A DNA stretch of 24,000 bases from Promethearchaeota archaeon. GTDB taxonomy: Archaea; Asgardarchaeota; Lokiarchaeia; Sigyniarchaeales; SOKP01. Below are positions 6,428 to 24,000 of the stretch, one piece after another. The notes beneath the pieces are model-generated. The model was not told the DNA's origin, did not search any database, and saw only the letters and a list, made by a program, of their open reading frames with translations. Location: the NCBI GenBank assembly GCA_018238625.1, contig JABCSY010000043.1, forward strand, positions 1 through 24,000, read 5' to 3'. Every line of letters starts with the position of its first letter. Positions within the stretch are counted from its first letter, which is position 1. The position numbers were made by a program, and so were the translations under genes.

Positions 6428-7477
6428 ATGTTGAATCTTCTTAGTAGGTACCTTAAGAAAAATTATAATGCACTTGAAAAAATTAATATTTTAGTTTTAG
6501 TTCTACAAAATAACCAGAGGATTGAAATAATCAATAAAAGAAGCTATCAATTTTTTAGGCTTTCAAAAAAGTTAAGACCTATTTCTATTTTTTTTGTTTT
6601 CAACGATAGTTTTTATCTATATTTATTAAGAAGCAATCTTTATAAATTTCTTAACAGAAGTATAAAAGATACCGACTTTAGGAAATTAATAAAACTTGAA
6701 ATTCTGAAAGCCCCTGAATTTCAAGAATACGGTGTAATTTTTAATCTTATAATAAAATTAGTTATCTCTATTATGGAAACCAAGATCTTATCTAAGTCTA
6801 TTGGTTTAGAGCATCCTAATGTGAAGAAAGTTATAGAAATAGCTGAGGAGATTATGAGTAAAAATAAAGTCTTAAACATAGAAACTCTCTATAACGTGGC
6901 AAAAAAAAGCTTGAAATTGCCCCGAAACGGGCTCTTATTTATAATACAATTATTAATAAATAAAAAAATTTTAATTGAAGGTTCAAAGTTTTCAAGGGAA
7001 ACAGTTCTTGTAAATCCTACTAGAAGAGGGCTTTACAATTACATTAGCGCGAACCCCGGCGCACACTTCTCTATTTTAAGAAAGAGAGCGCTTTCTATGG
7101 GATCGGAGAGTTCAGGCCAATTAGTATGGCACTTAGAGATGTTATTAAATTTTAATTATATCTATAAAATTAAAGTAGGAAATTACACAGTGTTTCTTCC
7201 CATTGAGATGGAAGTCGATTTAGGAATAATCAATTTTTTACTAAGAGATAAGATAAATAGGAAAATTGTAGACTTATTAAGAACACAAAGATCAATTAAA
7301 AATTCAGAAATCTTTAAATTTTTAGATGAAAAACGAGAACAAGTTAATTATCGACTAAAAACTTTAATTAATTACGATTTAATTTGCTTTAAAGAAGATC
7401 TGAGTAAAGAAGTCTATTTAAATCCAGATAAACAAGAGGATGTAATTAATATATTAAATAATATCAAAATAGGTTGA
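6428..7477 (+). CDS. Multi-winged-helix (wHTH) protein of unknown function; putative DNA-binding or scaffold protein
   Basis: The C-terminal 230 aa contain about three wHTH-like units. One example is RRGLYNYISANPGAHFSILRKRAL....GQLVWHLEMLLNFNYIYKIKVGNYTVFLP; another is INRKIVDLLRTQRSIKNSEIFKFLDEKREQVNYRLKTLINYDLICFKED. The N-terminal 115 aa are unrecognisable, but a 345-nt open frame in DNA this AT-rich is unlikely to arise by chance. An alternative start is ATG 6773. Confidence 0.5.
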   Translation: MLNLLSRYLKKNYNALEKINILVLVLQNNQRIEIINKRSYQFFRLSKKLRPISIFFVFNDSFYLYLLRSNLYKFLNRSIKDTDFRKLIKLEILKAPEFQEYGVIFNLIIKLVISIMETKILSKSIGLEHPNVKKVIEIAEEIMSKNKVLNIETLYNVAKKSLKLPRNGLLFIIQLLINKKILIEGSKFSRETVLVNPTRRGLYNYISANPGAHFSILRKRALSMGSESSGQLVWHLEMLLNFNYIYKIKVGNYTVFLPIEMEVDLGIINFLLRDKINRKIVDLLRTQRSIKNSEIFKFLDEKREQVNYRLKTLINYDLICFKEDLSKEVYLNPDKQEDVINILNNIKIG

Positions 7478-7516
7478 TATAAAAAATAATTAAAATTAAG
7501 TAAATGGAATAAGAAA

Positions 7517-8833
7517 ATGGTATTAAATTGGACACCTGAAGTAATCGTTGAAATTTTCACGAGTACAGTTATTCTAGTCGCTATTCTATTGATGTATGTC
7601 ACACCGAGAACTAAGAAAATAAAATCTTTATCTTATATTAGATTAGCTCTTTTTTTTATGGGCATGCTCTTTACCTTAGACTTGTTGGCAAATCTTTTTT
7701 TGATCACATTACTTTCTCGGATTTCTGGTCTTATGCTATTTCCTAGTGCAGTGTTTTTTGCGATTGGGATCAATTATACGATAAAAGAAACATCTAATTC
7801 ACCTTTCTTAATTATAGTAGTTGGTTTAGGTGTTTTATTTTGTTATCTTGCTTTTCAACCTGGAGCTGTCGGATTTGAATTAGTGGGAGGGCATCTAAAT
7901 TTAAATTGGACTGGATTGTATGAATTGATGGGTTCAATTTTTATATTCTTCGTTGGTAGTGCGTCGTTTTATTGGGGTTTAAAAACCTGGTTGAATGCTC
8001 CATTTTTGATAAAAAGAGAAGCTCTTATATTTTTTATGGGTACTGTAATAAATGGGCCATTAACTCTAGTTATATACCTTTTTTACTATTGGAATCCAAT
8101 TTTTATTCTATTTGCTTACGCTACTACAGGTTTAGGAATCTTAATTTTTTGTATAGGTGTAATAAAAGAGCCTAAACTCCTTTATATTCTACCATTTACA
8201 GTTAATAGGCTTGTTGTAAGAGATCGAGAAGGAAACCCTTTATTCGACCACGATTGGGCTCTTTCTAGCTTAAGTGAATCAATTTTTCCGGGATTTCTAA
8301 ATGCTGTGCAACTTATGAGCGAAGAAGTTATAAATTTGGGGGGGCTATTGGACATTAAATTAGAAGAAGGTATCTTTACATTATATGAATCTGAATTAAT
8401 CTCAGTTGGTTTAGTCGCATCTAAGTACTCTATATTATTACGAGAGTGTGTTGTACAATTTACTCGAGATTTCGAGCAAAAATTCGAACGAGAATTGAAA
8501 AGACAGGTTAAGGATGTGGTCCAATACGAAGGAGCATTTGAATTGATTGAAAAATATTTTTCTAATTTTCCTTATAAAAATATTAAAAGTAAAAAACAAC
8601 CATTATTATTAGCTGGAAAATTTGCGAAAGTACCATTAGAGATAGAGAATAAGCTAAGCAATATTTTTACGGATGAAAAAGAGTATCAAGCAATAAAAAC
8701 TGAACTACTAAAATCACCTATTGGACTTACTTCGGCGTTCTTTACTCTCTATAATGATTTATTAGATGAAACTAAGCGAATTTCTGAAGAAGAATCCCTA
8801 CTTTTGAATGATAATAACGATTTGGATAAATGA
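7517..8833 (+). CDS. Polytopic membrane protein with a C-terminal cytoplasmic longin/roadblock-like domain
   Basis: About 7 hydrophobic helices occupy the first ~220 aa. The next segment, RLVVRDREGNPLFDHDW...ESIFPGFLNAVQLMSEEVI..LLDIKLEEGIFTLYESELISVGLVAS..ILLRECVVQFTRDFEQKF, follows a beta-beta-alpha-beta-beta-beta-alpha pattern, and its GFLnAvq helix is typical of longin/roadblock-type domains. A helical acidic tail follows. Confidence 0.5.
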   Translation: MVLNWTPEVIVEIFTSTVILVAILLMYVTPRTKKIKSLSYIRLALFFMGMLFTLDLLANLFLITLLSRISGLMLFPSAVFFAIGINYTIKETSNSPFLIIVVGLGVLFCYLAFQPGAVGFELVGGHLNLNWTGLYELMGSIFIFFVGSASFYWGLKTWLNAPFLIKREALIFFMGTVINGPLTLVIYLFYYWNPIFILFAYATTGLGILIFCIGVIKEPKLLYILPFTVNRLVVRDREGNPLFDHDWALSSLSESIFPGFLNAVQLMSEEVINLGGLLDIKLEEGIFTLYESELISVGLVASKYSILLRECVVQFTRDFEQKFERELKRQVKDVVQYEGAFELIEKYFSNFPYKNIKSKKQPLLLAGKFAKVPLEIENKLSNIFTDEKEYQAIKTELLKSPIGLTSAFFTLYNDLLDETKRISEEESLLLNDNNDLDK

Positions 8834-9661: not shown

Positions 9662-10027
9662 CTAAGGATTTATTTGCTTATCTTGAAATAAATCTTTTAA
9701 CATTTTTTTTAATTGCTTTTTGGATTCTGGAATATTTTTTGTAATAATGTCCCATATTATTTCCAAATCAATTTTGAAATAACCATGAGCGGCGATATTT
9801 CTTAATCCTATCATTTGAGGCCAAGGAAGATCAGGAAACTTAATTTTAATTTCCTCTGGAATGTTTTTTGATGCTTCTCCTATAAGTTCTAAATTTCTTA
9901 AAACCGCATCAATTACCATTTGATTCTCGCAAAAATTTTTATAATCTAAACCCTCAATATATTTCTCAATCAATAAAATGAATTCATTAATATCTTCAAG
10001 AAATAATTTAACGGTTCGTTTTTTCAT
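9662..10027 (-). CDS. hepT: HepT-like toxin (DUF86, nucleotidyltransferase substrate-binding family)
   Basis: The Rx4HxY motif is present (RNIAAHGY). The ~120 aa size fits. The ORF overlaps the upstream MNT gene by 4 bp. Confidence 0.8.
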   Translation of the reverse strand: MKKRTVKLFLEDINEFILLIEKYIEGLDYKNFCENQMVIDAVLRNLELIGEASKNIPEEIKIKFPDLPWPQMIGLRNIAAHGYFKIDLEIIWDIITKNIPESKKQLKKMLKDLFQDKQINP

Positions 10028-10314
10028 ACATAAATCACTTCATGCAGAATTTTATCTTTCATTTGAGGTCTAAGAGCATTTTTTGTTGCCAAATCAACTT
10101 TTTTGTTTAATATTTTTTCAAGAAATTCTTTAAGTATAGAATATTTCCAACCAATTGGACCGTTGAATTTAACATAGATATCTATGTCGCTTTCAGGCGT
10201 TTCTTCACCTCTAGAATATGAACCGAAAACGCCAATTTTCTCAACATAGAATTGATTTTTTAAATAATCTTTTTGTTCTCTTAAAATAGATTCAATTTTC
10301 TTTAACTCAAGCAT
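10024..10314 (-). CDS. mntA: MNT-type minimal nucleotidyltransferase antitoxin
   Basis: The GSxxRG...DxD signature is present (GVFGSYSRGEETPESDIDIYV). The protein is 96 aa. An ATGA overlap joins it to hepT at 10024-10027. Confidence 0.8.
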   Translation of the reverse strand: MLELKKIESILREQKDYLKNQFYVEKIGVFGSYSRGEETPESDIDIYVKFNGPIGWKYSILKEFLEKILNKKVDLATKNALRPQMKDKILHEVIYV

Positions 10315-10481: not shown

Positions 10482-11198
10482 ATGGGCATTCGAAAGATTG
10501 AAGATGAAATTGATTTAAGAGAAGCTATGAAAAGGAAGGCAGCAGAGTTAAAAGTAAAAGATATTCAAGCTAAAGCTTCGACAGAAAACTTTACAAAAGA
10601 AAAACTTCGGGAACTGGCAAAAAAACATGGAGTTATATTGGCTTTAACTCCTGAATTGAAGGATCAAGTCAGAGATTTACAAAGAAAGTATAACATACCG
10701 TCTTCAAAAATCATAACAGAACAAATCATGGAAAACGATGTTTTGAAGAAGTTTTCAAAAATCGACCACGAAAAGTTAGGAATGCTCGCTTATCAAAGAG
10801 TTTTGATGCAAAAAGAAGAAATTGGAGTTGGTTTAATGCCCATTTCTGAAGTTTATGACTTAGTAAATACAGGTATTTTAAAAGAAGTATTAGATTTAAA
10901 AGATTTACTCAAAGCATTAAAGATTCTAAAAAAAGATCGCGTTATAGAGGAATTACAAGAATTAAAGGGCAGTTCCGTAATGGTAAGGTTCTTTCCGGTT
11001 CAGTACACTAACGACCAAGTGAAAATTATCGGAATCGCAAAAGAAAAAGGTTATGTTTCGATTGAAGATATTTGTATTGCTCTAACATGGTCTCAAGATC
11101 GCGCCCTACAAACCCTAAAATCGTTAGAAGATAGTGGAATCGCTAAATTTAGGGAATCTCTTTTAAAAGGAAAGCAGTGGTATTTCCCTTCAATATAA
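10482..11198 (+). CDS. vps22: ESCRT-II EAP30-domain protein (Vps22/Vps36-like)
   Basis: An N-terminal helical region is followed by tandem winged helices. The C-terminal block IAKEKGYVSIEDICIALTWSQDRALQTLKSLEDSGIAKF....QWYFPSI parallels the SNF8/Vps22 block (..AEKNGYVTVSEI...L.W...RA..VLE.L..EGLAW.D....YW.PAL, recalled from memory). Confidence 0.7.
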   Translation: MGIRKIEDEIDLREAMKRKAAELKVKDIQAKASTENFTKEKLRELAKKHGVILALTPELKDQVRDLQRKYNIPSSKIITEQIMENDVLKKFSKIDHEKLGMLAYQRVLMQKEEIGVGLMPISEVYDLVNTGILKEVLDLKDLLKALKILKKDRVIEELQELKGSSVMVRFFPVQYTNDQVKIIGIAKEKGYVSIEDICIALTWSQDRALQTLKSLEDSGIAKFRESLLKGKQWYFPSI

Positions 11199-11203
11199 GA
11201 GAT

Positions 11204-12100
11204 TTATTCTATTTTAATTTTAAAAGAAAGCTGACCGTCATCAAGTTTTATAATCTGCCCTCTCTTATCCTTTTCCAATATTTTAAATATTTTTATTATG
11301 TCGTTATTGGGAAGCGTATTAAAAGCTTTGTTAGATTCTCTTATTTCAAATATTAATATTGGTTCTAATGGTGAAATTTCCATGGCCCAATCATAGATAT
11401 CTTCGGCCCAATTATCTAGACTTTTCCAATAAACTCTTAATTTTTCTTTACTTTTTGATAGCCATTCAGCTTGTTCTTTATTTACTAGTTCTTCAGCGAG
11501 TATCTTTAAAGCTGAGTTACGATCTTCAAAGTTTGAAAAAGGTTTATCGGATTCTAACTTTCTAAGATATAAGATGTGGAGAATAGCGTAGCGAGCGTAG
11601 TCAAAAAGAACTTTAGACCATTCGCTTTTCCAAGATTCGTAATCCTTCAAGTTTGTTTTTTTATTAGGAAGAGAAAACATGAAAACATATCTTTTTTCTT
11701 CGAGCCAAGGATAATCGTTCAATAACAACTCGTAAGTTGATATTTCTCTGACAACGACACCCTTCTCTCTTATTATTTCTAACTCAATCTCTTGGAGCTC
11801 TTTCTCGATTTGAATGGCATTTTGTTTATAAGCTGTTTGATCGATTTCTCCTAGCTTTGATGTGAGAAAGTCTTCAATTTTATCTAAACGCGCTTCTATT
11901 TCTTCGCTTGTTTCTTCCTCAGTAATTTCTTCTGTACCCGCTTCTTGTATCGCTTCTTGCCTTTCTTTCGCTTGTTGGCTTCTTAGTACTTTTAACCGAG
12001 CCAACTCTTTTCTTAAGTCTTCAAGTTCCTTATCTGCTTTTTCTTTAACTTCTTTAGGAACTTCTTTAGGTTTTACCTTTTGCCTCTCCATATTTTCCAA
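11204..12100 (-). CDS. vps25: ESCRT-II Vps25-like protein with a long N-terminal charged coiled-coil extension
   Basis: The C-terminal ~170 aa are collinear with Vps25/EAP20. FMFSLPNKKTNLKDYESWKSEWSKVLFDYAR corresponds to FFTLQPN..TR.KQL..W..L.L.FCR. LAEELVNKEQAEWLSKSKEKLRVYWKSLDNWAEDIYDWA corresponds to LEELRKKGNLEWLDKSK..FLIMWRRPEEWGKLIYQW. The ORF ends in a second winged helix. Confidence 0.75.
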   Translation of the reverse strand: MENMERQKVKPKEVPKEVKEKADKELEDLRKELARLKVLRSQQAKERQEAIQEAGTEEITEEETSEEIEARLDKIEDFLTSKLGEIDQTAYKQNAIQIEKELQEIELEIIREKGVVVREISTYELLLNDYPWLEEKRYVFMFSLPNKKTNLKDYESWKSEWSKVLFDYARYAILHILYLRKLESDKPFSNFEDRNSALKILAEELVNKEQAEWLSKSKEKLRVYWKSLDNWAEDIYDWAMEISPLEPILIFEIRESNKAFNTLPNNDIIKIFKILEKDKRGQIIKLDDGQLSFKIKIE

Positions 12101-12112
12101 CTTTAATTTTTA

Positions 12113-13330
12113 TTAATATTCTCCGAATTCTTTTGCCCATTGTTCGTATTGGTTTAGAGCCGCTTTAGTTGTCATTGGTTTAACTTTTTTTAATGTTTTA
12201 GCAAAATCTTTTAAATTAAGATCCCTTACAATTACTTCTTGATCGGAGTTTTCTAAAAGCCCACCCATATCTAATTCTCTAATTGGAAGCATAATGACTT
12301 CGCGGCACACGTTAGAAATATCTCTTCCCGAATATCCTTCAGACCGAACTCCTAATTCGATAAAATCTTCTTCAGTTAACGCCATATTAATACCTGCGGT
12401 ATGAATTTTAAAGATTCCAATTCTGGCTGTTAGATCTGGAAGTGGCACATACACTTTCTTCTCAAATCTACTAAGCATAGCAGCGTCAATGTCCCAAGGT
12501 CGATTAGTAGCCCCTAAAACTAATAATGGTTTTTTAGAACCCGATTTAACGCCTTGAATTTCGCTTAACAATTGCGTTTTTACCCGTCTTTCGCCACCTC
12601 CTTCGTGCCCTTGACCTCTCTTAGTTGCCACCGAGTCAATTTCATCCATAAAAATTAAACTTGGAGCTTTAATTCGAGCAACTTTAAAAAGCGAGCTGAT
12701 TAATTTCTCACTTTCGCCTAACCATTTGCTTAATAAATCTGCGGATGAAACGCTAAAAAATGTCGCTTCGCATTCCGTAGCAGCAGCTCTCGCTAATAAT
12801 GTTTTTCCACAACCAGGTGGGCCAAACAATAAAATGCCTGACCATGGTTTTCTTGCTCCCGTAAAAAGTTGGGGTTTCATAATTGGCAACACTATCGCTT
12901 CTCTTAAAGCTTGTTTAGACGACTTTAAGCCCGCAATATCGTTCCACCTTACGTTAGGAGATTCTGTTAATATTGTGCCTGAAATCGAATCTATAATTTC
13001 TTGTTCTTCAGCAGAGTATTGTCCCTCCTCCCCTTTTCCCTCGCCATCTTTGGCTTCACTTGTTCCAATAGAGGGTCTACCTTTTCTGGCACGAGGGCCA
13101 CTTAAATGTACTTTTAGTACGTTAGCACGATTAATATACTGTTCAATTTGATCGTGACATTTTCTAACCATTATTGGGTTTTTGTTAAATTGTACGAATT
13201 GAATAAGAATTTCTGCGGCTCTTTGATATTTATTTAGCGCTTGTCTATAATGTCCCTTCTCGTCTAATGCTACTGCTGCTTGTGCTTCTTGAACAGCGTA
13301 TTGATAAAGTTTACTGTCAACACTACTCAA
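12113..13330 (-). CDS. vps4: Vps4 (CdvC-type) MIT-domain AAA+ ATPase
   Basis: There is an N-terminal MIT-like three-helix region (AVQEAQAAVALDEKGHYRQALNKYQRAAEILIQF). Walker A is GPPGCGKT, pore loop 1 is SKWLGESEK and Walker B is LIFMDEID. A C-terminal Vps4_C-like helix is present (LNQYEQWAKEFG). The stop lies 12 bp upstream of the vps25 start, giving an operon-like arrangement. Confidence 0.9.
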   Translation of the reverse strand: MSSVDSKLYQYAVQEAQAAVALDEKGHYRQALNKYQRAAEILIQFVQFNKNPIMVRKCHDQIEQYINRANVLKVHLSGPRARKGRPSIGTSEAKDGEGKGEEGQYSAEEQEIIDSISGTILTESPNVRWNDIAGLKSSKQALREAIVLPIMKPQLFTGARKPWSGILLFGPPGCGKTLLARAAATECEATFFSVSSADLLSKWLGESEKLISSLFKVARIKAPSLIFMDEIDSVATKRGQGHEGGGERRVKTQLLSEIQGVKSGSKKPLLVLGATNRPWDIDAAMLSRFEKKVYVPLPDLTARIGIFKIHTAGINMALTEEDFIELGVRSEGYSGRDISNVCREVIMLPIRELDMGGLLENSDQEVIVRDLNLKDFAKTLKKVKPMTTKAALNQYEQWAKEFGEY

Positions 13331-13544
13331 ATTTATAATGACCTTTTTAAATTATTTATTTATCTTGTTTATCTTAAAAAATTATTAATATTTATAGCTA
13401 ATCTAGTTCGATACTTATTTTATTTATTAATACATCCAAATATATCAAATTTTCTCTTTAAAATTGTACTGTAAACATTGGTCTACAACAAAAAATTATA
13501 TAATCTTGGATTTTTAATATTATTATATAGTAATAACGAAAAAA
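13331..13544. promoter_or_regulatory. Divergent promoter region between vps4 (-) and the ESCRT-III gene (+)
   Basis: This 214-bp AT-rich spacer lies between divergently oriented genes. TATA-like elements sit at about 13496-13503 (preceded by an A-rich BRE-like run) and 13521-13530 on the plus side, and around 13350-13365 on the minus side. No transcription start sites can be determined from sequence alone. Confidence 0.3.
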
Positions 13545-14183
13545 TTGATGATGAATATGGGATTTCTTAAAGATATGTCAAAGTGGTTGTCCGGTGGCCA
13601 AAAAAGTGATTCTGTTCGCTCTGCTACCGTCAAATTAAAGGTGTTCAACAAAAGATTGGCTCGTCAGACTAGGAAAATGGAGATGACATCTAAATTAGCG
13701 AGAGATAAAGCTGTAAAACTTCGAAAAGCTGGTGATATGGACGGTTCAGAATTTCACGCGCGAAATTATCTTCAAGTTAAAAAGCAAGCTAGAGCGATTG
13801 ACCATTTCAGAACTAACTTAGAAGGAATGGTATTTAAGTTGGAACAGGCTAACGCTGTTAAAGATATTTCATTTATCATGCAAGGTATTGCCACTAGCTT
13901 AGGTGCATTAAAAAATCAGTTATCGGTTCCTCAGCTTACAGACTTGATGACCACAATTGGTATTGATATGGAAGATTTTTCTGTTGTTGAAGAGATAACA
14001 TCTGACGGAATAGACGACATGACTCTCGATACAGCAGTTACTGATAACCAGGTTAAGGAGATATTAGGCGAAATCGATGCCGAGATACAAGTTGAAGTAG
14101 GTGGAGCATTACCTTCGGTTGATCCCGATGGAAAGGTAAAAGAATTAGAAGATGAATTAAACAAGTTGAAGTCGCGAGATTAG
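13545..14183 (+). CDS. ESCRT-III (Snf7 family; Vps2/24/46 = CHMP1-3-like by its C-terminal MIM1)
   Basis: A basic N-terminal helical hairpin (KLKVFNKRLARQTRKMEMTSKLARDKAVKLRKAG...) is followed by an acidic C-terminal half. The terminal KELEDELNKLKSR fits the MIM1 spacing. The start is ambiguous (TTG 13545, ATG 13548/13551/13557); MGFLKD at 13557 resembles typical ESCRT-III N-termini. Confidence 0.8.
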   Translation: MMMNMGFLKDMSKWLSGGQKSDSVRSATVKLKVFNKRLARQTRKMEMTSKLARDKAVKLRKAGDMDGSEFHARNYLQVKKQARAIDHFRTNLEGMVFKLEQANAVKDISFIMQGIATSLGALKNQLSVPQLTDLMTTIGIDMEDFSVVEEITSDGIDDMTLDTAVTDNQVKEILGEIDAEIQVEVGGALPSVDPDGKVKELEDELNKLKSRD

Positions 14184-14195: not shown

Positions 14196-14286
14196 AAGTT
14201 TCTCTTTTTGACTACCAAGCAAAATTATTTAAGCTAAAACTCTATTTTTAATTTATTCTCTAATTCAATATTTAAAAGTGTTAAAA

Positions 14287-15294
14287 ATGAATCCAGAATT
14301 AATAACGATTGGTAGTTGTACTCTTGATTGTATGCTACAAGTTAAAGATATTCTTAGATTTGAATTGTTTGATAAAGAAATTGTTAAAAAATACACTGCA
14401 ATTGAATACAGTCGCAAACTGAATGTCGATGGCGTTCTATTTGTTCCTGGGGGGTCTGCTGCCAATATTGCGTCAAATTGCGCGATGTTGGGGTTAAAAA
14501 GCGCTTATCTTGGCGTATTAGGGAACGACTTTTCAGCAAGTATTTGTTTAGATGATATGAAAAAAAGAGGTGTAGATCTTTCAAGTATCATTCAAACTGA
14601 TGAGGATTGTACGGCGTTTTCAGTAATTTTAAAAACTGAATGGGGAAAAGACAGAAGTATTCTTGCTTATAAAGGTGCAAATAACATGTTAAAACCAGAG
14701 GATGTAAAAGAAGATATATTTCAAGATATCAAAGCTTTTGCTTGGACATCGTTAACTACCGAAAGTGGTTGTAGAGCAATTGAGAAAGCACTAACGCTCA
14801 CTTTAGAAAACGGTGGTAAAGTATTTGCCGCACCCAGCATGTCAATTATTAAAAACAACCCAAAATGGGCAAGAATTCTTATTTCAAACTCAAATGTCGT
14901 TTCATTAAATAAAGAAGAGGCTCAAGAGTTTACAAACGAGACAGATATAGTTCACATGATTCATAACTTTTTAGATCTTGGAATAAAATTAATTTCAATT
15001 ACCGATGGTCCCAATGGCTCAATTATATCTGATGGCAAACATATTGTGAACAGTTCAATTTACGAGGGTCCGGTCGAAGACACCACAGGAGCAGGAGACG
15101 CTTTTCTAAGTGGACTACTAATATCCCAACTAAACGAGTTTAGTTTAGAGAAATCGTCTAAGATGGCAACAGCAATGTCTTACTTAGAAAGCAAAGAGGT
15201 CGGGGTTCGAGAGGGCTTACCTAATAGTTTACGTGAGTTAGAAGCCTTTATAGATAATAATGAGATAAAACAAAAAGTTTCAAAGATAGTTTGA
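14287..15294 (+). CDS. PfkB-family carbohydrate/nucleoside kinase (ribokinase-like)
   Basis: GGSAANIA lies near the N-terminus and the C-terminal anion-hole motif is DTTGAGDAFLSG. The size is ~335 aa. I prefer ATG 14287 (MNPELITIG) to GTG 14278. Confidence 0.8.
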   Translation: MNPELITIGSCTLDCMLQVKDILRFELFDKEIVKKYTAIEYSRKLNVDGVLFVPGGSAANIASNCAMLGLKSAYLGVLGNDFSASICLDDMKKRGVDLSSIIQTDEDCTAFSVILKTEWGKDRSILAYKGANNMLKPEDVKEDIFQDIKAFAWTSLTTESGCRAIEKALTLTLENGGKVFAAPSMSIIKNNPKWARILISNSNVVSLNKEEAQEFTNETDIVHMIHNFLDLGIKLISITDGPNGSIISDGKHIVNSSIYEGPVEDTTGAGDAFLSGLLISQLNEFSLEKSSKMATAMSYLESKEVGVREGLPNSLRELEAFIDNNEIKQKVSKIV

Positions 15295-15901: not shown

Positions 15902-16720
15902 CTAATCTAAAATAACCGATAGGTCGTGATCGAAATAGCTAGTTAGTATAATTAACAATAATTCAAGATAATTTCCTGATAAATTAATATTCCATCTTTT
16001 ATTTAACTGTTTAAGAAGTTCCTTCTTCCGTAATTTTTTAGGTTTTTTATATTTATCGAGAAGATCAATCAAATCTCTTGAATATTCGTGAAGATTTAAA
16101 AGTTCATTTTTTAATACAAATTTACTCGTCTCTAAATTGTAAGTGTCGAAAAAATTTTGAACGATAGCTCGTTCAATACCCATTTTTTTCGGATTAATAA
16201 TATTAGTATCGTCCTTGACTATTTGATTAGCTTGAAGAACTATGTGTTCCTCGTATAGTATTTTGTCCTTTTTATAATCTTCTGCTGAAATTATCGCTAT
16301 CTCATTTTTAAAAGAATTTGAAGTTATATATTTGAGAAAGTTTTTAATTTGTTTATTAATGAAAGGATCGCTAGAGAGAATCACTATTTTTTTACCAGTA
16401 ACGATTGCTCTAATCGTGTTTATTAATAGAGAAGGAAGTAAATTTATTTTAATTAAAGATATATTAAATTCTTCTATTTCAGTAGGTACCGTTTCAATTT
16501 TTTTATTTGGTAAAGCTTCAGGAAGCGCTATCTGGAAATCAGCAATATAACAATCTCTAATAGAAAAATTTTTATCTACATACGCAATAAACGAATGTGA
16601 ACAGAAAGTCTTATCAATATTAATAGCAAATAATCCCTTCGCTGCCTTTTTAACATCTTCCTCGGAGATTTCAAGCTCTCCTCTTTTTGAACAAGCGGGG
16701 CAACGAACTTCAATTTTCAT
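15902..16720 (-). CDS. Uncharacterised Zn-knuckle + alpha/beta-core protein, paralogue A (hypothesis: folliculin-like longin + DENN-like architecture)
   Basis: 272 aa. The N-terminal domain contains CPAC...CSH. The central part is IRAIVTGKKIVILSSD, then a helix, then EIAIISAEDY. A helical tail follows. It is clearly paralogous to 19579-20424. Confidence 0.6.
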   Translation of the reverse strand: MKIEVRCPACSKRGELEISEEDVKKAAKGLFAINIDKTFCSHSFIAYVDKNFSIRDCYIADFQIALPEALPNKKIETVPTEIEEFNISLIKINLLPSLLINTIRAIVTGKKIVILSSDPFINKQIKNFLKYITSNSFKNEIAIISAEDYKKDKILYEEHIVLQANQIVKDDTNIINPKKMGIERAIVQNFFDTYNLETSKFVLKNELLNLHEYSRDLIDLLDKYKKPKKLRKKELLKQLNKRWNINLSGNYLELLLIILTSYFDHDLSVILD

Positions 16721-16732
16721 AAATTCTTATTA

Positions 16733-16791
16733 AATTATTCAACTTACCGAAGTATTAGTATAACTCGAATTATCAATAAAGTTGAATTATT
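16733..16791. repeat. Imperfect inverted repeat (13-bp arms, 1 mismatch, 33-bp spacer) upstream of paralogue A
   Basis: aattattcaactt (16733-16745) pairs with aagttgaattatt (16779-16791). It lies between the methyltransferase stop (16858) and the paralogue A start (16720). Confidence 0.4.
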
Positions 16792-16857
16792 CTTTTTTAA
16801 GTAACTATTAACCATTTGAGTTTATTAAGATAGCTAAGAAAAATGTAATGCTTTTTT

Positions 16858-17466
16858 TCATTTTCTTATAATGTAGTCAATCATGCCTTGAGTAGAATCC
16901 CGCTCACTCAGATATTCCCTTCTGATTTGTTTATAGATAATTTTATAATCTTCAAAATATCTATCGCCTTCTTTATATTCGAAATAAGTGTGTGAAAATT
17001 GTTCTCCATTTTCTTCATCCATAAATGTACCCGAACTAATTTCTTTTCCAATTCCATAACTAGAATCGTCTATCGAAAGTAAATTCACATAAATTAATCC
17101 TTGCTTTTTAAGAACACGAAACATTTCATTGATAGCTTCTGCTATTTCTTCTTTATTCATATGAAAGATGGTATTGTAAGTGTATACAAATCCAAATGCT
17201 TCATTTTCATAAGGAAGTTTTCTCATGTCCCCCTTAGTAATGTTTAAGTTAAAGCCGTTCTTTTTAGCAAAATTTTCTGCATTTTGAATCCGCTCTTCTG
17301 AAATTTCGATTCCATAAGTTTCAAATCCATGGATTGCAAAAAGTGCGAGTTTAGGAAAGTTACCCCCCGCCCCACAATCTAGTATAGTCTGTTCAACTTG
17401 AGCATCATGTGTGTAATCTAGAAAATTATATAAAGGTGCTGGAAAAATCTTTTGAGTCATTTTCAT
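16858..17466 (-). CDS. Class I SAM-dependent methyltransferase (Methyltransf_11/25-like)
   Basis: Motif I is ILDCGAGGN. It is followed by YGIEISE, an acidic post-I residue, and FGFVYTYNTIFHM / LKKQGLIYVNL. The substrate is unknown. Confidence 0.75.
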   Translation of the reverse strand: MKMTQKIFPAPLYNFLDYTHDAQVEQTILDCGAGGNFPKLALFAIHGFETYGIEISEERIQNAENFAKKNGFNLNITKGDMRKLPYENEAFGFVYTYNTIFHMNKEEIAEAINEMFRVLKKQGLIYVNLLSIDDSSYGIGKEISSGTFMDEENGEQFSHTYFEYKEGDRYFEDYKIIYKQIRREYLSERDSTQGMIDYIIRK

Positions 17467-17587
17467 ATCACTAATTCTTACTGTACTTAAATTAATTTGA
17501 ATTTCTTATTAAAATATTGTATAAAAGTCATAATTATCTTCGTGAAAGGGCTGTTTCACGATCTGTTTTTAAAAATAAAAAAAAAAG

Positions 17588-19315
17588 TTAAAATTTTGAT
17601 TCTCTATAAAATATCCGTATTGGTTCTTTCAAACCATAATGAAGCGTTAAAAAGCCCATGGCTATTGCAAAGATTGCTAAACTTGGCCAAAAAGAAGCCC
17701 ATGGGGCATTGTATAAATAGTTTCTTGCCTCACTGACATTAGTTCCTAATTGTACTAGCACTAAAGGATCGGAAAATCCAAGGAAACCTATTGCTTCGAA
17801 TAACAAAATATTGAACGCCATGAATAACGGGAAATATACAATTAACTTCTTTACGGTTAATTTTAAGCTGTAATTTCCCCTACTGATTATTAAAGTGACC
17901 CAAGGTATCATATACAGGGACATAATGTTCATTATGACTGAGATATTTCCTCCTCCCAAAATACTAAATGACATTATTATCAAAACTATGCTGGGTATTA
18001 TGAAAAGGATTACCATGAATCCCAATACCAATCCTTTTACCCACCTATGAACTTTGGATAAATAACCAAATAATATTCCTATCGCAATTCCTATGAGAAC
18101 AGGCAAGATACAAACTCTCATCGATGTTGATACACCATATGCCAATAATGCAAGTACATCGCGTCCAAATCTAGCTTGTCCTAAGGGATGATTAGCCGAT
18201 GGCGGATCCCAAGCACCCGCATAAATGCCAGTTGCTTCTTCTATAGTAAATGGAGTTAATATCTGTGGAAATATAGCTATTATTGTTGTGAATACCACCA
18301 CAGCTATTCCTATTATTGTTAATGGCGTTTTTAGCCGATAAAATATAAAATCTTTAAATTTTTGGTCTGAATCGACACTATATTGAGTACCTTCTTCAAT
18401 CATTCGCTCGGATTTCCCTAAATACTTAGTAAAAATTGGTGATTGGCTTTCCTCTGAGAAAAAAGCGTAAATTGTGTATCCTATATTCGATAGGAATAGA
18501 ATAATTGCGGGAAGTACGACTAGGATAAATACGTATGCTCTGCATAACCAATAATCCATAAGATTAATTGCAGTAATGAAAAGTCCAAAAAAACCATGTA
18601 TTCCGAATGTAACTTCGAGAATGAAAATACTTGCAATTAAAACGCTTAAATTCATAATTATCTGCAAGCTATTGGATAAAATATGTTTTTCCTCTGATTT
18701 CCTCAAATAATTAGAACGAACTTGTCTTGTCGTGAGAAATAAAGTTAACAGAAATAACACACAAGACGGTAAAAATGAATCTCCCACCGGGGGAAAAAGT
18801 CCCAATTGATAACCTAAAACGTATTGGAACCACATCCCTAAAGAAAATATCGGTATCGAAATACCTAAAATAATAAGGATTTGAATAAATACTTTAACCA
18901 ATTTATATCTAACTCTAAATGATAATATCCCTAGTAAAATACCTACAATTAAACCTAAAACAATCGGTAATATTGTAAAACCTAAAGTTACTGGAATCCT
19001 CTCAGTTAAAAGTTCAACTACAGTGCTACCTTGCGAAATAGCAATGGAGATCCCTAGATTTCCTGAAAAGAGCTCAGAAAGATACCTAAAGAACTGGACA
19101 TCCAAAGGTTGATCAAAACCTAATGATATAAACGCTGCATCATGTGCTGCTTGCGAAAACGGAATACCTTGAGCTTGTAGATATGCAAGAACTATATCAC
19201 CAGGCAGTAACCGAAGTAACTGAAAAAATTGAAAGCTCAGAACCAATCCGAAAAATAGTGGCACGATAGGGAGTAGAATAGTATAGAGTATGTTTCTAAT
19301 AACATCTTTTAACAT
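17588..19315 (-). CDS. Fused ABC-transporter permease (OppB/DppB-like N-half + OppC/DppC-like C-half)
   Basis: The N-half starts MLKDVIRNILYTILL...LLRLLPGDIV, a typical DppB N-terminus. The C-half has HPLGQARFGRDVLALLAYGVSTSMRV...GILFGYLS, the typical DppC signature. I prefer ATG 19315 over the track start 19471. Confidence 0.75.
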   Translation of the reverse strand: MLKDVIRNILYTILLPIVPLFFGLVLSFQFFQLLRLLPGDIVLAYLQAQGIPFSQAAHDAAFISLGFDQPLDVQFFRYLSELFSGNLGISIAISQGSTVVELLTERIPVTLGFTILPIVLGLIVGILLGILSFRVRYKLVKVFIQILIILGISIPIFSLGMWFQYVLGYQLGLFPPVGDSFLPSCVLFLLTLFLTTRQVRSNYLRKSEEKHILSNSLQIIMNLSVLIASIFILEVTFGIHGFFGLFITAINLMDYWLCRAYVFILVVLPAIILFLSNIGYTIYAFFSEESQSPIFTKYLGKSERMIEEGTQYSVDSDQKFKDFIFYRLKTPLTIIGIAVVVFTTIIAIFPQILTPFTIEEATGIYAGAWDPPSANHPLGQARFGRDVLALLAYGVSTSMRVCILPVLIGIAIGILFGYLSKVHRWVKGLVLGFMVILFIIPSIVLIIMSFSILGGGNISVIMNIMSLYMIPWVTLIISRGNYSLKLTVKKLIVYFPLFMAFNILLFEAIGFLGFSDPLVLVQLGTNVSEARNYLYNAPWASFWPSLAIFAIAMGFLTLHYGLKEPIRIFYRESKF

Positions 19316-19578: not shown

Positions 19579-20424
19579 TTACAAAGCTCCAAGAAAATTA
19601 GAAACATTTGAAGATTTAGGAACTTCAACATTGAAATAACTCTCAACGATTTCAAAAAGAAAATCGAGATATTTTAATTGGATTTTTACATTGTGAATGT
19701 TAGATAAATCTTCAATTATTTTTTTTGAATAAACCTTCTCTTTTTTTTTAAAATTTTTAACTATGTCTACTATCGTTTCAGATAATTGGTAAGCTTTTAG
19801 TAGTCCATTTTGTAGATATATTAAACTGGGTCTTGGCTCATATTCCTCAAAAAATTTCTGCACTAAGGCTCTTTCTATGCCTAATTTTTTTACATTGATG
19901 ATACCATCGTCGTCCTTTATAATGTCCTTACGGTTAAAAACAATAAAATCTTTATAACTTTCGCTATTATATTGATCTTCTGAAATGACAACAAGCTCAG
20001 TTTCAAAAGAATTTCTTGTTATATAGTCAAAAAACCTTTGAACATCATCAAACATAAATAGCTGGTCAAAAATTAAAACGATCTTTCTCTTATGTAATAT
20101 AGCTCTAATTACATAAGCGATTAAGGAAGCAGACAAATTAAGTTTGATTGAACTTACGTTAATTGAATCAAGTTGAGCGGAGTCTTTAGGTTCTATACTT
20201 TTTTCCGGAATTATCTCAGGAAGTTCTAATTGAAAATCTGCCATAAATGTGTCTCTTACCATGAAGTTCTTATCTATGTAAGCAACGAAAGAATGCTCGC
20301 AAATAATACCTTCCGCCAAATTTACTGCAAACACCCCTCTTTTAGCTTTTTCTATTTCCTCTTCAGAAACTTCAATAAAGCCTCTACTTGAACATGAGGG
20401 GCAACGAACTTCTATTTTCTTCAT
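19579..20424 (-). CDS. Uncharacterised Zn-knuckle + alpha/beta-core protein, paralogue B (hypothesis: folliculin-like longin + DENN-like architecture)
   Basis: 281 aa. It has CPSC...CEH, IRAILHKRKIVLIFD followed by a helix and ELVVISEDQY, and GIERALVQKFF. It is collinear with 15902-16720 over its full length. Confidence 0.6.
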   Translation of the reverse strand: MKKIEVRCPSCSSRGFIEVSEEEIEKAKRGVFAVNLAEGIICEHSFVAYIDKNFMVRDTFMADFQLELPEIIPEKSIEPKDSAQLDSINVSSIKLNLSASLIAYVIRAILHKRKIVLIFDQLFMFDDVQRFFDYITRNSFETELVVISEDQYNSESYKDFIVFNRKDIIKDDDGIINVKKLGIERALVQKFFEEYEPRPSLIYLQNGLLKAYQLSETIVDIVKNFKKKEKVYSKKIIEDLSNIHNVKIQLKYLDFLFEIVESYFNVEVPKSSNVSNFLGAL

Positions 20425-21083: not shown

Positions 21084-21158
21084 TGGTGGGCCAAGGGAGG
21101 ATTGAACTCCCGACCTTCCGCACGTCAAGCGGACGTCATACGACTAGACCATTGGCCC
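21084..21158 (-). tRNA. tRNA-Val (anticodon GAC), intron-less, with genomically encoded CCA
   Basis: The reverse complement reads GGGCCAA-TG-GTCT-AGTCGTA-TGAC-G-TCCGC-TTGACGT-GCGGA-AGGTC-GGGAG-TTCAATC-CTCCC-TTGGCCC-A-CCA. It forms a standard cloverleaf with a fully paired 7-bp acceptor stem. Confidence 0.85.
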
Positions 21159-22684: not shown

Positions 22685-23551
22685 TTAGTTCCTTTTCCTT
22701 CTTTTTAGCCATATTACTACACCGCTTATTATTGCTATATACGCCAAGCCATTAAGAATGACCATAAAAACGATTCCAAAGACATCTTCGGATGTTGGGC
22801 CGTAATATATAATTCCTACATATATCGATTCAACTTTTCCTTTATTCCATTCGAATAAAGCACTTTGCCCTCCTTGAATATCTGAAATTTGCAGATCCAC
22901 ATCAATCCCCCCACTATATATAGGAAGCTTACCAAATACTTTAAACTCTACTCTTTGCGTTAGATTTCCTTTCCAAACCCTTGCAGTTTCTAAATAATAC
23001 GCCATGTAGAATAAATTCCGAAAACCTAACGGTTTAGGTATTGAACCGCTGAATTGATAATTAATAATGTAAGAATTGTTTTCTAAAAGGGTTAAATTGG
23101 AAGTAATTAAAGTTATTGGGCAATGGACGACAAATCTGGATAAGAAATCAAGATTTATTCCCGTACTAGTTAAGTTTTCTTCAGTATTACTTAACACTTC
23201 GAAAGGGATTTGCGTATCGTTTACGGACACATCAAAAGTGGAGTTTTGGACATCCATACATAGCGAGAATGGTAAGATTAGGGTAAGATTCGTTGTATAT
23301 TCTGGGTTAAACAGCGTGTAATTTCCATTAAAATTAATTTCCATTTTGTTGGAAAAGTCTGTAGCATTCATGGTAATCATCGTGTTGATGTTTATTAAAC
23401 GAACGGTTGTGTTGGTGCTGGGAAAGATATCTGCGATAAATTGATCTGGTAAAGATGGAGGAGGGGCTGTTATATTAAGGGGTAAGACGATACCGTTCGT
23501 TAAGAGAAATAGGGCAATAAGAACGGAAAGTATTTGATAGTGTTTTCTCAT
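22685..23551 (-). CDS. Secreted, C-terminally membrane-anchored protein rich in N-glycosylation sequons (candidate surface glycoprotein)
   Basis: An N-terminal signal-like segment (MRKHYQILSVLIALFLLTNG) and a C-terminal TM followed by KRRKRN are present. I count 11 N-x-S/T sequons by eye. An alternative start lies at 23572. Confidence 0.55.
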   Translation of the reverse strand: MRKHYQILSVLIALFLLTNGIVLPLNITAPPPSLPDQFIADIFPSTNTTVRLININTMITMNATDFSNKMEINFNGNYTLFNPEYTTNLTLILPFSLCMDVQNSTFDVSVNDTQIPFEVLSNTEENLTSTGINLDFLSRFVVHCPITLITSNLTLLENNSYIINYQFSGSIPKPLGFRNLFYMAYYLETARVWKGNLTQRVEFKVFGKLPIYSGGIDVDLQISDIQGGQSALFEWNKGKVESIYVGIIYYGPTSEDVFGIVFMVILNGLAYIAIISGVVIWLKRRKRN

Positions 23552-23765
23552 ATAATCACCTTGTAAATTCATCTAATGGGATTCAATTAGTATTTTTAAA
23601 CCTATCGTTAGATTCTTTGTAATATTAAAATAATCAATAGTATAATCAATACATTGGAGCTATGTTTTTAAATTTATTAAGACCAAAAGATTCTATTTAG
23701 TATATATTATACTAGTAAATTATTATGAACTGAAAGTTTGAAATGTTTTGAATTGGTGATTGAGT

Positions 23766-24000
23766 GTGGATGAGATTAGAGAAATTTTAAATAAACTGCT
23801 TGATAAGAAGTGTTCTATTGAAGAGGCAGAAAAAATGTTGAAGGCTAATACTATCGAAGAGGTAGGAGATTTGGCTAAGCTGGATGTCTTCAGAAAGTTA
23901 CGCACTGGCGTTGTTGAGGTTATTTATGCGGAAAACAAAACGCCTCAAATGATTATAGAAATAATTTATACTTTCCTAAAGAAAAATAAATTTGCTATTG
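23766..24000 (+). CDS. larB: LarB-like (PurE/AIR-carboxylase-related) protein, N-terminal fragment running off the right edge
   Basis: The frame is open from the stop at 23757-23759 to the window end, with candidate starts TTG 23760 and GTG 23766. The translation ...LKANTIEEVGDLAKLDVFRKLRTGVVEVIYAENKTPQMIIEII... matches the LarB N-terminal pattern (a..D..R..R.GfpEvIyg.gKt..qi). It is missed by the ORF track because it is truncated. Confidence 0.55.
   Translation, partial: MDEIREILNKLLDKKCSIEEAEKMLKANTIEEVGDLAKLDVFRKLRTGVVEVIYAENKTPQMIIEIIYTFLKKNKFAI

Follow-up and report, generated by a model that had tools for sequence, protein, structure and literature searches.

The ESCRT-II, ESCRT-III, and Vps4 gene region on a contig of a Loki-type Asgard archaeon

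[quoted passage not shown] The question is raised by the first 24,000 nucleotides of contig JABCSY010000043.1 (Promethearchaeota archaeon, GenBank assembly GCA_018238625.1); this whole stretch is called the window here. A first reading made from the sequence alone had proposed that the four genes encode a Vps22/36-like protein of the EAP30 family, a Vps25-like protein, the ATPase Vps4, and one ESCRT-III subunit of the Snf7 family. I analyzed the genes together with related loci, which were sampled as one genome per species; this gave 26 loci, all from metagenome-assembled genomes (MAGs) of Promethearchaeota/Promethearchaeia. In summary, it is very probable that the locus is the chromosomal ESCRT-II/ESCRT-III/Vps4 region of a Lokiarchaeia-type (Promethearchaeota) Asgard archaeon, since the four domains score above their cut-offs, match solved structures, and keep conserved motifs, and since the gene order is shared by the 26 genomes and agrees with published loci. 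Asgard ESCRT-II/ESCRT-III/Vps4 genes are among the best evidence for eukaryote-type membrane remodelling in the archaeal ancestors of eukaryotes.

Four ESCRT-family genes and the Cdv alternative

The profile searches with EAP30, Vps25, MIT, AAA, Vps4_C, and Snf7 all gave matches above the curated cut-offs, and the eukaryote-type module of the sequence-only reading is borne out by these Pfam matches and by solved structures. The Vps22-like protein matches Pfam EAP30 (PF04157) with 37.1 bits (cut-off 26.8; E 3.7e-9) over positions 2 to 214 of the 219 positions of the profile. In the PDB, it matches human SNF8/VPS22 at 2.7e-8 and yeast Vps22 at 4.1e-5, and VPS36 at just 0.036. Judged by these values the protein appears nearer to Vps22 than to Vps36. 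Its orthologues in the 26 genomes are 63-97% identical. A second EAP30-family or Vps36-like open reading frame (ORF) was found neither in the window nor within about 10 kb in the 26 relatives. The absence of Vps36 fits the Asgard type, where Vps22 self-associates instead.

The Vps25-like protein matches Pfam ESCRT-II (PF05871) with 44.1 bits (cut-off 27). Its core matches the PDB chain 9uyv_A, "ESCRT-II complex subunit", at 1.2e-44, the chain 7pb9_A, "Tandem WH domains of Vps25", at 5e-23, and human VPS25 at 1.9e-8. The chain 7pb9_A is presumably the crystal structure of Odinarchaeota Vps25 from Hatano et al. A crystal structure of the VPS25 of MK-D1 is described in a preprint in which the MK-D1 ESCRT proteins were also tested in human cells (bioRxiv 10.1101/2025.11.01.685982); the 9uyv chain is probably this structure, the preprint text being without that code. 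A total of 482 homologues were found, and the best 120 of them are all 291-301 amino acids (aa) long and align over 91-100% of the query. The named sources among these best 120 are Promethearchaeota (including Loki_b31), Lokiarchaeota, and other Asgard labels.

The Vps4 protein scores 46.5 bits with Pfam MIT (13112-13303), 136.8 bits with AAA (core at 12440-12835), 33.5 bits with AAA_lid_3, and 30.3 bits with Vps4_C (helix at 12122-12241). The alignment with yeast Vps4 (5uie_A) scores 330 bits and is continuous from the MIT domain into the small AAA subdomain (query residues 13-355, chain residues 11-356). Human Vps4 is likewise matched. The Walker A motif GPPGCGKT and the pore loop 1 SKWLGESEK are identical in 31 of 31 Vps4 copies. 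The Walker B motif is LIFMDEID in 30 copies and LIFIDEID in the other one, and the R...RR pattern of the arginine collar is seen in 27/31. In eukaryotic Vps4, a beta-domain insertion in the small AAA subdomain is the binding site of Vta1/LIP5. This insertion is absent from the C-terminus of the present Vps4 (12113-12265): the yeast alignment ends at residues 355/356, and the distance from there to the Vps4_C match is about 9 residues, whereas yeast has about 40. Both katanin and spastin lack a beta-domain insertion and align with the present Vps4 end to end.

The ESCRT-III subunit scores 56.4 bits with Pfam Snf7 (cut-off 27.3). Its PDB matches rank CHMP2A (1.5e-9) before CHMP1B (5e-7), a "CdvB, Vps2 like protein" (9s9j; 9.4e-7, 32 bits), and the Heimdall ESCRT-IIIB (3.7e-4); eukaryotic CHMP4, CHMP6, Snf7, and Vps20 are all absent from this ranking. 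Because CHMP2A and CHMP1B lead this ranking without CHMP4 or CHMP6, the subunit is assigned by its sequence to the Vps2/24/46 (CHMP1-3, ESCRT-IIIB) class. It ends with a helix, KELEDELNKLKSRD, at 14139-14180, in which Leu residues at i, i+4, and i+7 are followed by Lys, the spacing of MIT-interacting motif 1 (MIM1; L-x3-L-x2-L-K/R). This MIM1-like motif is almost unchanged across the 26 loci. When 1.84 billion cluster representatives were searched exhaustively, just 179 relatives of the subunit were found. Those with names are Snf7-family proteins of Asgard archaea (Freyarchaeota, Hodarchaeales, Promethearchaeota) or eukaryotic proteins (such as CHMP1b of Anaeramoeba and a protein of Coleochaete), and the named eukaryotic neighbours among the family representatives include CHMP1 proteins.

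All four ORFs lie where the sequence-only reading had placed them, except that later start codons are likelier for two of them. The Vps25 ORF more likely starts at the ATG at 12091, because NCBI gene calls on identical contigs use 295 aa. The ESCRT-III ORF more likely starts at the ATG at 13551 or 13557 (210 or 208 aa), again because of the NCBI gene calls on identical contigs.

Could the ATPase and the ESCRT-III subunit belong to a Cdv division system (CdvB/CdvC) of the Thaumarchaeota-Aigarchaeota-Crenarchaeota-Korarchaeota (TACK) type, with two unrelated winged-helix proteins beside it? The best NCBIfam names of the two proteins are indeed CdvC and CdvB, and the 9s9j chain carries the name of CdvB. 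However, comparison of scores (NCBIfam models and PDB chains) places neither Vps4 nor the Snf7 protein with TACK Cdv. Both NCBIfam equivalogs stay far under their cut-offs (272 bits against 650 for CdvC, 37 bits against 370 for CdvB), and CdvA is absent from the window, where its sole match is noise (E=3.3). The MIT domain scores 29.6 bits with yeast Vps4 and only 17-21.6 bits with crenarchaeal MIT or CdvC chains, while the C-terminal part of Vps4 scores 65 bits with yeast Vps4 and has no CdvC chain among its best 60. Of the nearest full-length ESCRT-III representatives, 0/120 match the CdvB model at E<=1e-30. The C-terminal tail of the ESCRT-III subunit points the same way: leucine-rich MIM1-like C-terminal motifs are known from Asgard Vps2/24/46 proteins, whereas CdvB has no well-characterised MIM1 (Lu et al. 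2020). Finally, the winged-helix proteins are true homologues of Vps22 and Vps25. A TACK-type Cdv system is thus effectively refuted.

Gene order, synteny, and neighbours

Are the four genes one operon? Their strand order is + - - +, which implies three transcription units rather than a single operon. The Vps22 gene converges on the Vps25 gene and is transcribed alone. Vps4 lies upstream of Vps25, and these two are probably co-transcribed as one operon because only about 21 nt separate the Vps4 stop codon from the Vps25 ATG. ESCRT-III is divergent from Vps4 over an AT-rich spacer of 214-226 bp. Going by this layout, Vps22 and ESCRT-III would each have a separate promoter.

The intergenic regions of the related loci were aligned, and the columns conserved to at least 80% were counted. 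In the Vps4/ESCRT-III spacer, TATA-like boxes are conserved, and so is a block, TTGTAGACCAAT, at 13477-13488 (- strand). This block is relatively G+C-rich within the AT-rich spacer, adjoins AGATTATATAATTTT, and is at least 80% conserved; it could be a regulator site or an element of a 5′ untranslated region. The rest of the window shows no enrichment of it (4 matches versus 2.6 expected). A scan for sigma-70 promoters and intrinsic terminators, which is irrelevant for an archaeon, gave no terminators.

Synteny was assessed by tblastn of all window proteins against the related loci. The block PfkB <- ESCRT-III, Vps4 -> Vps25, <- Vps22, NIP7 -> (arrows give the direction of transcription) is kept in 26/26 related species-level genomes and continues past NIP7 with RsmB and CYTH, in some cases preceded by a transmembrane protein and a helix-turn-helix (HTH) protein. 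The proteins of the four ESCRT genes are 56-97% identical to those of the 26 relatives; even the most distant locus, L029, with a Vps25 of 56% identity, keeps the block. In L029, a 248-aa multi-pass membrane protein (7644-8390, - strand) is inserted between ESCRT-III and Vps4. An identical Vps4 and the same gene order are present in four NCBI MAGs (GCA_018238745.1, GCA_018238725.1, GCA_030622695.1, and GCA_018238565.1).

This synteny bears on whether the cluster is an artefact, that is, contamination with eukaryotic DNA, recent gene transfer from a eukaryote, or weak ORF matches brought together by chance. The modest Pfam scores of EAP30 and Vps25 (37 and 44 bits) might suggest an artefact. 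However, the four NCBI assemblies, which are independent, and 26 further species-level genomes of Asgard archaea carry the same locus, and a solved chain named "ESCRT-II complex subunit" is matched by the Vps25-like protein at 1e-44. The genes are intron-free with table-11 starts, the window is uniformly AT-rich (G+C of 26-37%, with no compositional break at the cluster), and the genes around the cluster are ordinary housekeeping genes of archaea (PGK, NIP7/PUA, RsmB, CYTH, an MFS transporter, and a sugar nucleotidyltransferase). The artefact explanation is refuted by the synteny. The named sources of the ESCRT homologues and loci are Promethearchaeota, Promethearchaeia, and Lokiarchaeota, and judged by them the host is a Loki-type (Promethearchaeota) Asgard archaeon whose contig is securely identified by the cluster. 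The NCBI kingdom Promethearchaeati, which holds the class of the relatives, is presumably the NCBI name for Asgard archaea.

Table 1. Coordinates of the ESCRT genes, their parts, and the flanking genes in the window
Feature	Position	Strand	Basis
Vps22-like ESCRT-II subunit (EAP30 family), 238 aa	10482-11198	+	Pfam EAP30, PDB matches
Vps25-like ORF as listed	11204-12100	-	Pfam ESCRT-II/Vps25
Vps25 tandem winged-helix core (residues about 116-295) plus stop codon	11204-11746	-	Pfam and PDB matches
Vps25 N-terminal extension (residues about 1-115)	11747-12091	-	Alignments, conservation, AlphaFold2 secondary structure
Vps4 AAA+ ATPase, 405 aa	12113-13330	-	Pfam MIT, AAA, AAA_lid_3, Vps4_C
Divergent AT-rich control region between Vps4 and ESCRT-III	13331-13556	.	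Intergenic alignment of related loci
ESCRT-III ORF as listed	13545-14183	+	Pfam Snf7
ESCRT-III subunit from ATG 13557, 208 aa, putative Vps2/24/46 class	13557-14183	+	Pfam Snf7, PDB ranking
MNT/HepT toxin-antitoxin pair, flank	9662-10314	-	Pfam NTP_transf_2, HepT-like
PfkB-family kinase, flank	14278-15294	+	Pfam PfkB

The flanks are as the sequence-only reading had described them, an MNT/HepT pair on one side (63.2 bits with NTP_transf_2 and 98.8 bits with HepT-like; the overlap of its genes is 4 nt) and a PfkB kinase on the other (137.9 bits). In most relatives, the starts of Vps22 and NIP7 are about 80 nt apart without a toxin-antitoxin pair. The pair is found at this position only in the loci L001, L002, L004, and L009, the last of which is the only one of the more distant relatives to have it. 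By this distribution the pair appears to be a lineage-specific insertion between Vps22 and NIP7, outside the ESCRT module. The PfkB gene lies directly downstream of ESCRT-III in every relative whose sequence reaches that far. This adjacency more likely reflects inherited gene order than functional coupling, because the nearby housekeeping genes are equally syntenic.

Between NIP7 and RsmB lies an accessory two-gene unit (6428-8833, + strand), which is present in some relatives and absent in others. The product of its first gene (6428-7477) is 349 aa long and has two or three winged-helix/HTH domains (HTH_HVO_0163_N, HTH_24), and its second gene encodes a 438-aa polytopic membrane protein whose cytoplasmic C-terminal domain looks longin- or roadblock-like by eye. 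In the near-identical strain of locus L002, a DDE transposase (16242-18047) replaces the HTH gene. For the 349-aa protein as a Vps36-like subunit there is no evidence; hhalign against the Vps25 profile gave a probability below 1%, a result that is uninformative at 1.4 effective sequences (Neff). The comparison of the Vps25 profile with Vps22 also gave less than 1% and is uninformative for the same Neff. No link between the accessory unit and ESCRT-II could be demonstrated.

Two further genes of the window, 19579-20424 (- strand) and 15902-16720 (- strand), encode paralogues of 281 and 272 aa, which are 43% identical, have no Pfam match, and share an invariant N-terminal CxxC...CxH site. The family of the 281-aa protein is Loki-specific (252 homologues; of the 120 listed, 119 have a length of exactly 281 aa), and the 272-aa paralogue was found in the window's own lineage alone. 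For the paralogous proteins, an AlphaFold2 (AF2) model was obtained with a predicted local distance difference test score (pLDDT) of 78.6 and a predicted template-modelling score (pTM) of 0.82. Its best fold matches in the PDB are the DENN-domain Rab guanine nucleotide exchange factors DENND1B and DENND1A and the folliculin/FNIP2 complex. The Foldseek probability for DENND1B/DENND1A is 0.94-0.97, but E is only 1.6e-3 and the template-modelling score about 0.3. An expansion of DENN paralogues in Loki-type Asgard archaea is described in a preprint (Liu et al.), and the two proteins are probably members of it.

A tRNA-Val (GAC) gene at 21084-21158 (- strand) adjoins PGK and is the sole Rfam match in the window. 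The gene at 22685-23572 (- strand) encodes a 295-aa protein with hydrophobic segments at both termini and many N-x-S/T sequons, probably a surface glycoprotein. The ends of the window cut two genes, the C-terminal part of a SIS-domain protein (1-453, + strand) and the N-terminal part of a protein that is LarB-like by eye (23761-24000, + strand).

Missing partners and a proposed mechanism

Does the locus contain a complete ESCRT pathway? No Pfam match to ESCRT-I, ubiquitin, or E1/E2/E3 proteins was found in any ORF of the window, including the small, the unannotated (E<=10), and the end-cut ones. Iterated jackhmmer searches with the four proteins over all ORFs of 30 loci and the window found no second ESCRT-III and no extra Vps22 or Vps25 paralogue. 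The first reading had likewise counted a single ESCRT-III and no ESCRT-I, ubiquitin, or E1/E2/E3 gene in the window, and had called this ESCRT-II/III/Vps4 arrangement partial. The arrangement is real; it is not peculiar to the window, being the layout of all 26 relatives. As the same absence is seen in all of them, the "partial" layout is the norm for the clade.

Several points weigh against reading the locus as a working eukaryote-type module. ESCRT-I, ubiquitin, and a second ESCRT-III are missing within about 10 kb of the cluster in 26/26 relatives, and another 10 kb along the near-identical contig JABCSS010000004.1 there are metabolic genes only, with no ESCRT or ubiquitin partner. Since the partners are absent locally, this genome gives no confirmation of the full pathway. 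The second region of homology (SRH) of Vps4 (12380-12450; residues about 294-317) reads AMLSRF, with one Arg, in 31/31 copies; the same site is RRRF in yeast and human Vps4 and RPGR in Cdc48. Full ATPase activity of the present Vps4 is an assumption. The AF2 model of full-length Vps25 (pLDDT 45, pTM 0.28, alignment of 20 sequences) is unusable because the alignment is too shallow, its sequences being 74-96% identical to the query. The cellular process served could be vesicle budding, the upkeep of protrusions, membrane repair, or division.

The Vps25-like protein has an N-terminal region of about 115 residues, which begins with a basic segment followed by a variable acidic linker and then by conserved helices. 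It is missing from the solved Vps25 chains, whose alignments start at query residue 115-130, and it appears specific to this clade. The mean column conservation is 0.78 in the extension versus 0.90 in the core, values that suggest purifying selection on the extension. In the AF2 secondary structure, residues 13-51, 59-76, and 85-109 are helical (low-confidence model). In locus L007, a 73-aa Vps25-like fragment (12491-12709, + strand), the sole additional match of the jackhmmer searches, lies downstream of NIP7 and is probably a pseudogene remnant.

Might this extension compensate for the missing genes? The Loki subclade could have a streamlined, ESCRT-I-independent module, in which the Vps25 extension serves as an upstream adaptor or membrane-targeting part, possibly steadiness-box-like, and replaces the roles of ESCRT-I and Vps36. 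The lack of ESCRT-I and ubiquitin genes around the cluster and the apparent purifying selection would agree with this idea, as would the N-terminal subdomains of Asgard Vps25 proteins, some of which are steadiness-box-like (Makarova et al. 2024, PMC10936438). However, elsewhere in Lokiarchaeota genomes there are ubiquitin and the ESCRT-I components Vps23, Vps28, and a free steadiness-box protein, and ESCRT-I and ESCRT-II interact (Hatano et al. 2022, PMC9192718). The absence covers 24-44 kb only and says nothing about the remaining genome. Pfam searches of the extension at E<=10 gave no steadiness-box, Vps28, Vps23_core, UEV, ubiquitin, or UBC match, and the extension is called unstructured in the AlphaFold 3 model of the MK-D1 protein (bioRxiv 10.1101/2025.11.01.685982). 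Thus, an ESCRT-I-independent module is improbable.

For this ESCRT-II/ESCRT-III/Vps4 region, the following mechanism is proposed by analogy. First, a Vps22-like dimer would bind Vps25 to form an ESCRT-II-like complex without Vps36. This step is suggested by a Heimdallarchaeota Vps22 whose homodimerisation was shown biochemically, and by yeast two-hybrid assays in which Vps22 of Heimdall-, Loki-, and Thorarchaeota interacts with itself (Hatano et al. 2022, PMC9192718). Second, Vps25 would recruit the adjoining ESCRT-IIIB (Vps2/24/46-class) subunit, as suggested by published two-hybrid interactions of Vps25 with ESCRT-IIIB and by the tight gene linkage seen here. A Y-shaped Vps22/Vps25 complex that recruits ESCRT-III is supported indirectly by this linkage and by data from other Asgard archaea. 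Third, ESCRT-IIIB would polymerise on the membrane with a Vps20/32/60-class partner that is presumably encoded elsewhere in the genome. Fourth, the MIT domain of Vps4 is predicted to bind the MIM1-like helix of ESCRT-IIIB, both motifs being present here, and a hexameric Vps4 would thread and disassemble the polymer, leading to membrane remodelling or scission.

Comparison with known ESCRT and Cdv systems

How much of this is new? The locus type, its synteny, the self-association of Vps22, the contact between Vps25 and ESCRT-IIIB, the pairing of MIM1 and MIT, and the Vps25 extension are already known, and the identical sequence is present in NCBI assemblies. The window is a clean example of an Asgard ESCRT locus and adds no new principle. 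Its modest value may lie in three clade-wide details: the Vps25 extension, the single-arginine SRH of Vps4, and the missing beta-domain.

In eukaryotes, ESCRT-II consists of Vps22, Vps36, and two copies of Vps25. The tandem winged-helix cores are homologous in the present proteins, but no Vps36, GLUE, or NZF ubiquitin-binding subunit is found here, and the N-terminal region of Vps25 is extra. The Snf7-fold ESCRT-III subunit resembles eukaryotic CHMP1-3 in its C-terminal MIM1-type helix, whereas only one ESCRT-III gene is found locally. Vps4 shares with its eukaryotic counterparts the MIT domain, the AAA domain, the C-terminal helix, the KW[LM]GE pore loop, and the arginine collar, and differs from them in having no Vta1-binding beta-domain and one SRH arginine in place of RRR.

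The CdvABC system of TACK archaea (Thermoproteota) also has an MIT-AAA ATPase gene that adjoins an ESCRT-III-family gene. In contrast to that system, the present locus has ESCRT-II genes and no CdvA, its ESCRT-III has no C-terminal winged helix, it has a MIM1-like motif rather than a MIM2-type contact, and the equivalog models stay far below their cut-offs.

The closest resemblance is to the ESCRT regions published for Lokiarchaeota. There, the ubiquitin and ESCRT regions are separate, and a steadiness-box gene lies near the ESCRT genes; in the survey of the same study, ESCRT-III and Vps4 have their tightest linkage with Vps25, Vps22 usually adjoins Vps25, and the ESCRT-I genes are not tightly clustered (Hatano et al. 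2022, PMC9192718). In addition, vps25 is co-directed with vps4 (Makarova et al. 2024, PMC10936438). The present locus differs in that ESCRT-III is divergent from Vps4 instead of co-directed, Vps22 stands alone without a co-directed vps23-like or vps28-like gene, the neighbourhood has no free steadiness-box or Vps28 gene, and an MNT/HepT pair is inserted beside Vps22. On the other hand, it shares with them the four gene families, a Vps25 gene in tight linkage and common direction with Vps4, only one Vps22-like gene, an ESCRT-III of the Vps2/24/46 type whose tail is MIM1-like, the extension at the N-terminus of Vps25, and a location of the ubiquitin genes apart from the ESCRT genes. Thus, the present locus is an orthologue of the published Lokiarchaeota/Promethearchaeia ESCRT regions, and the differences are local only.

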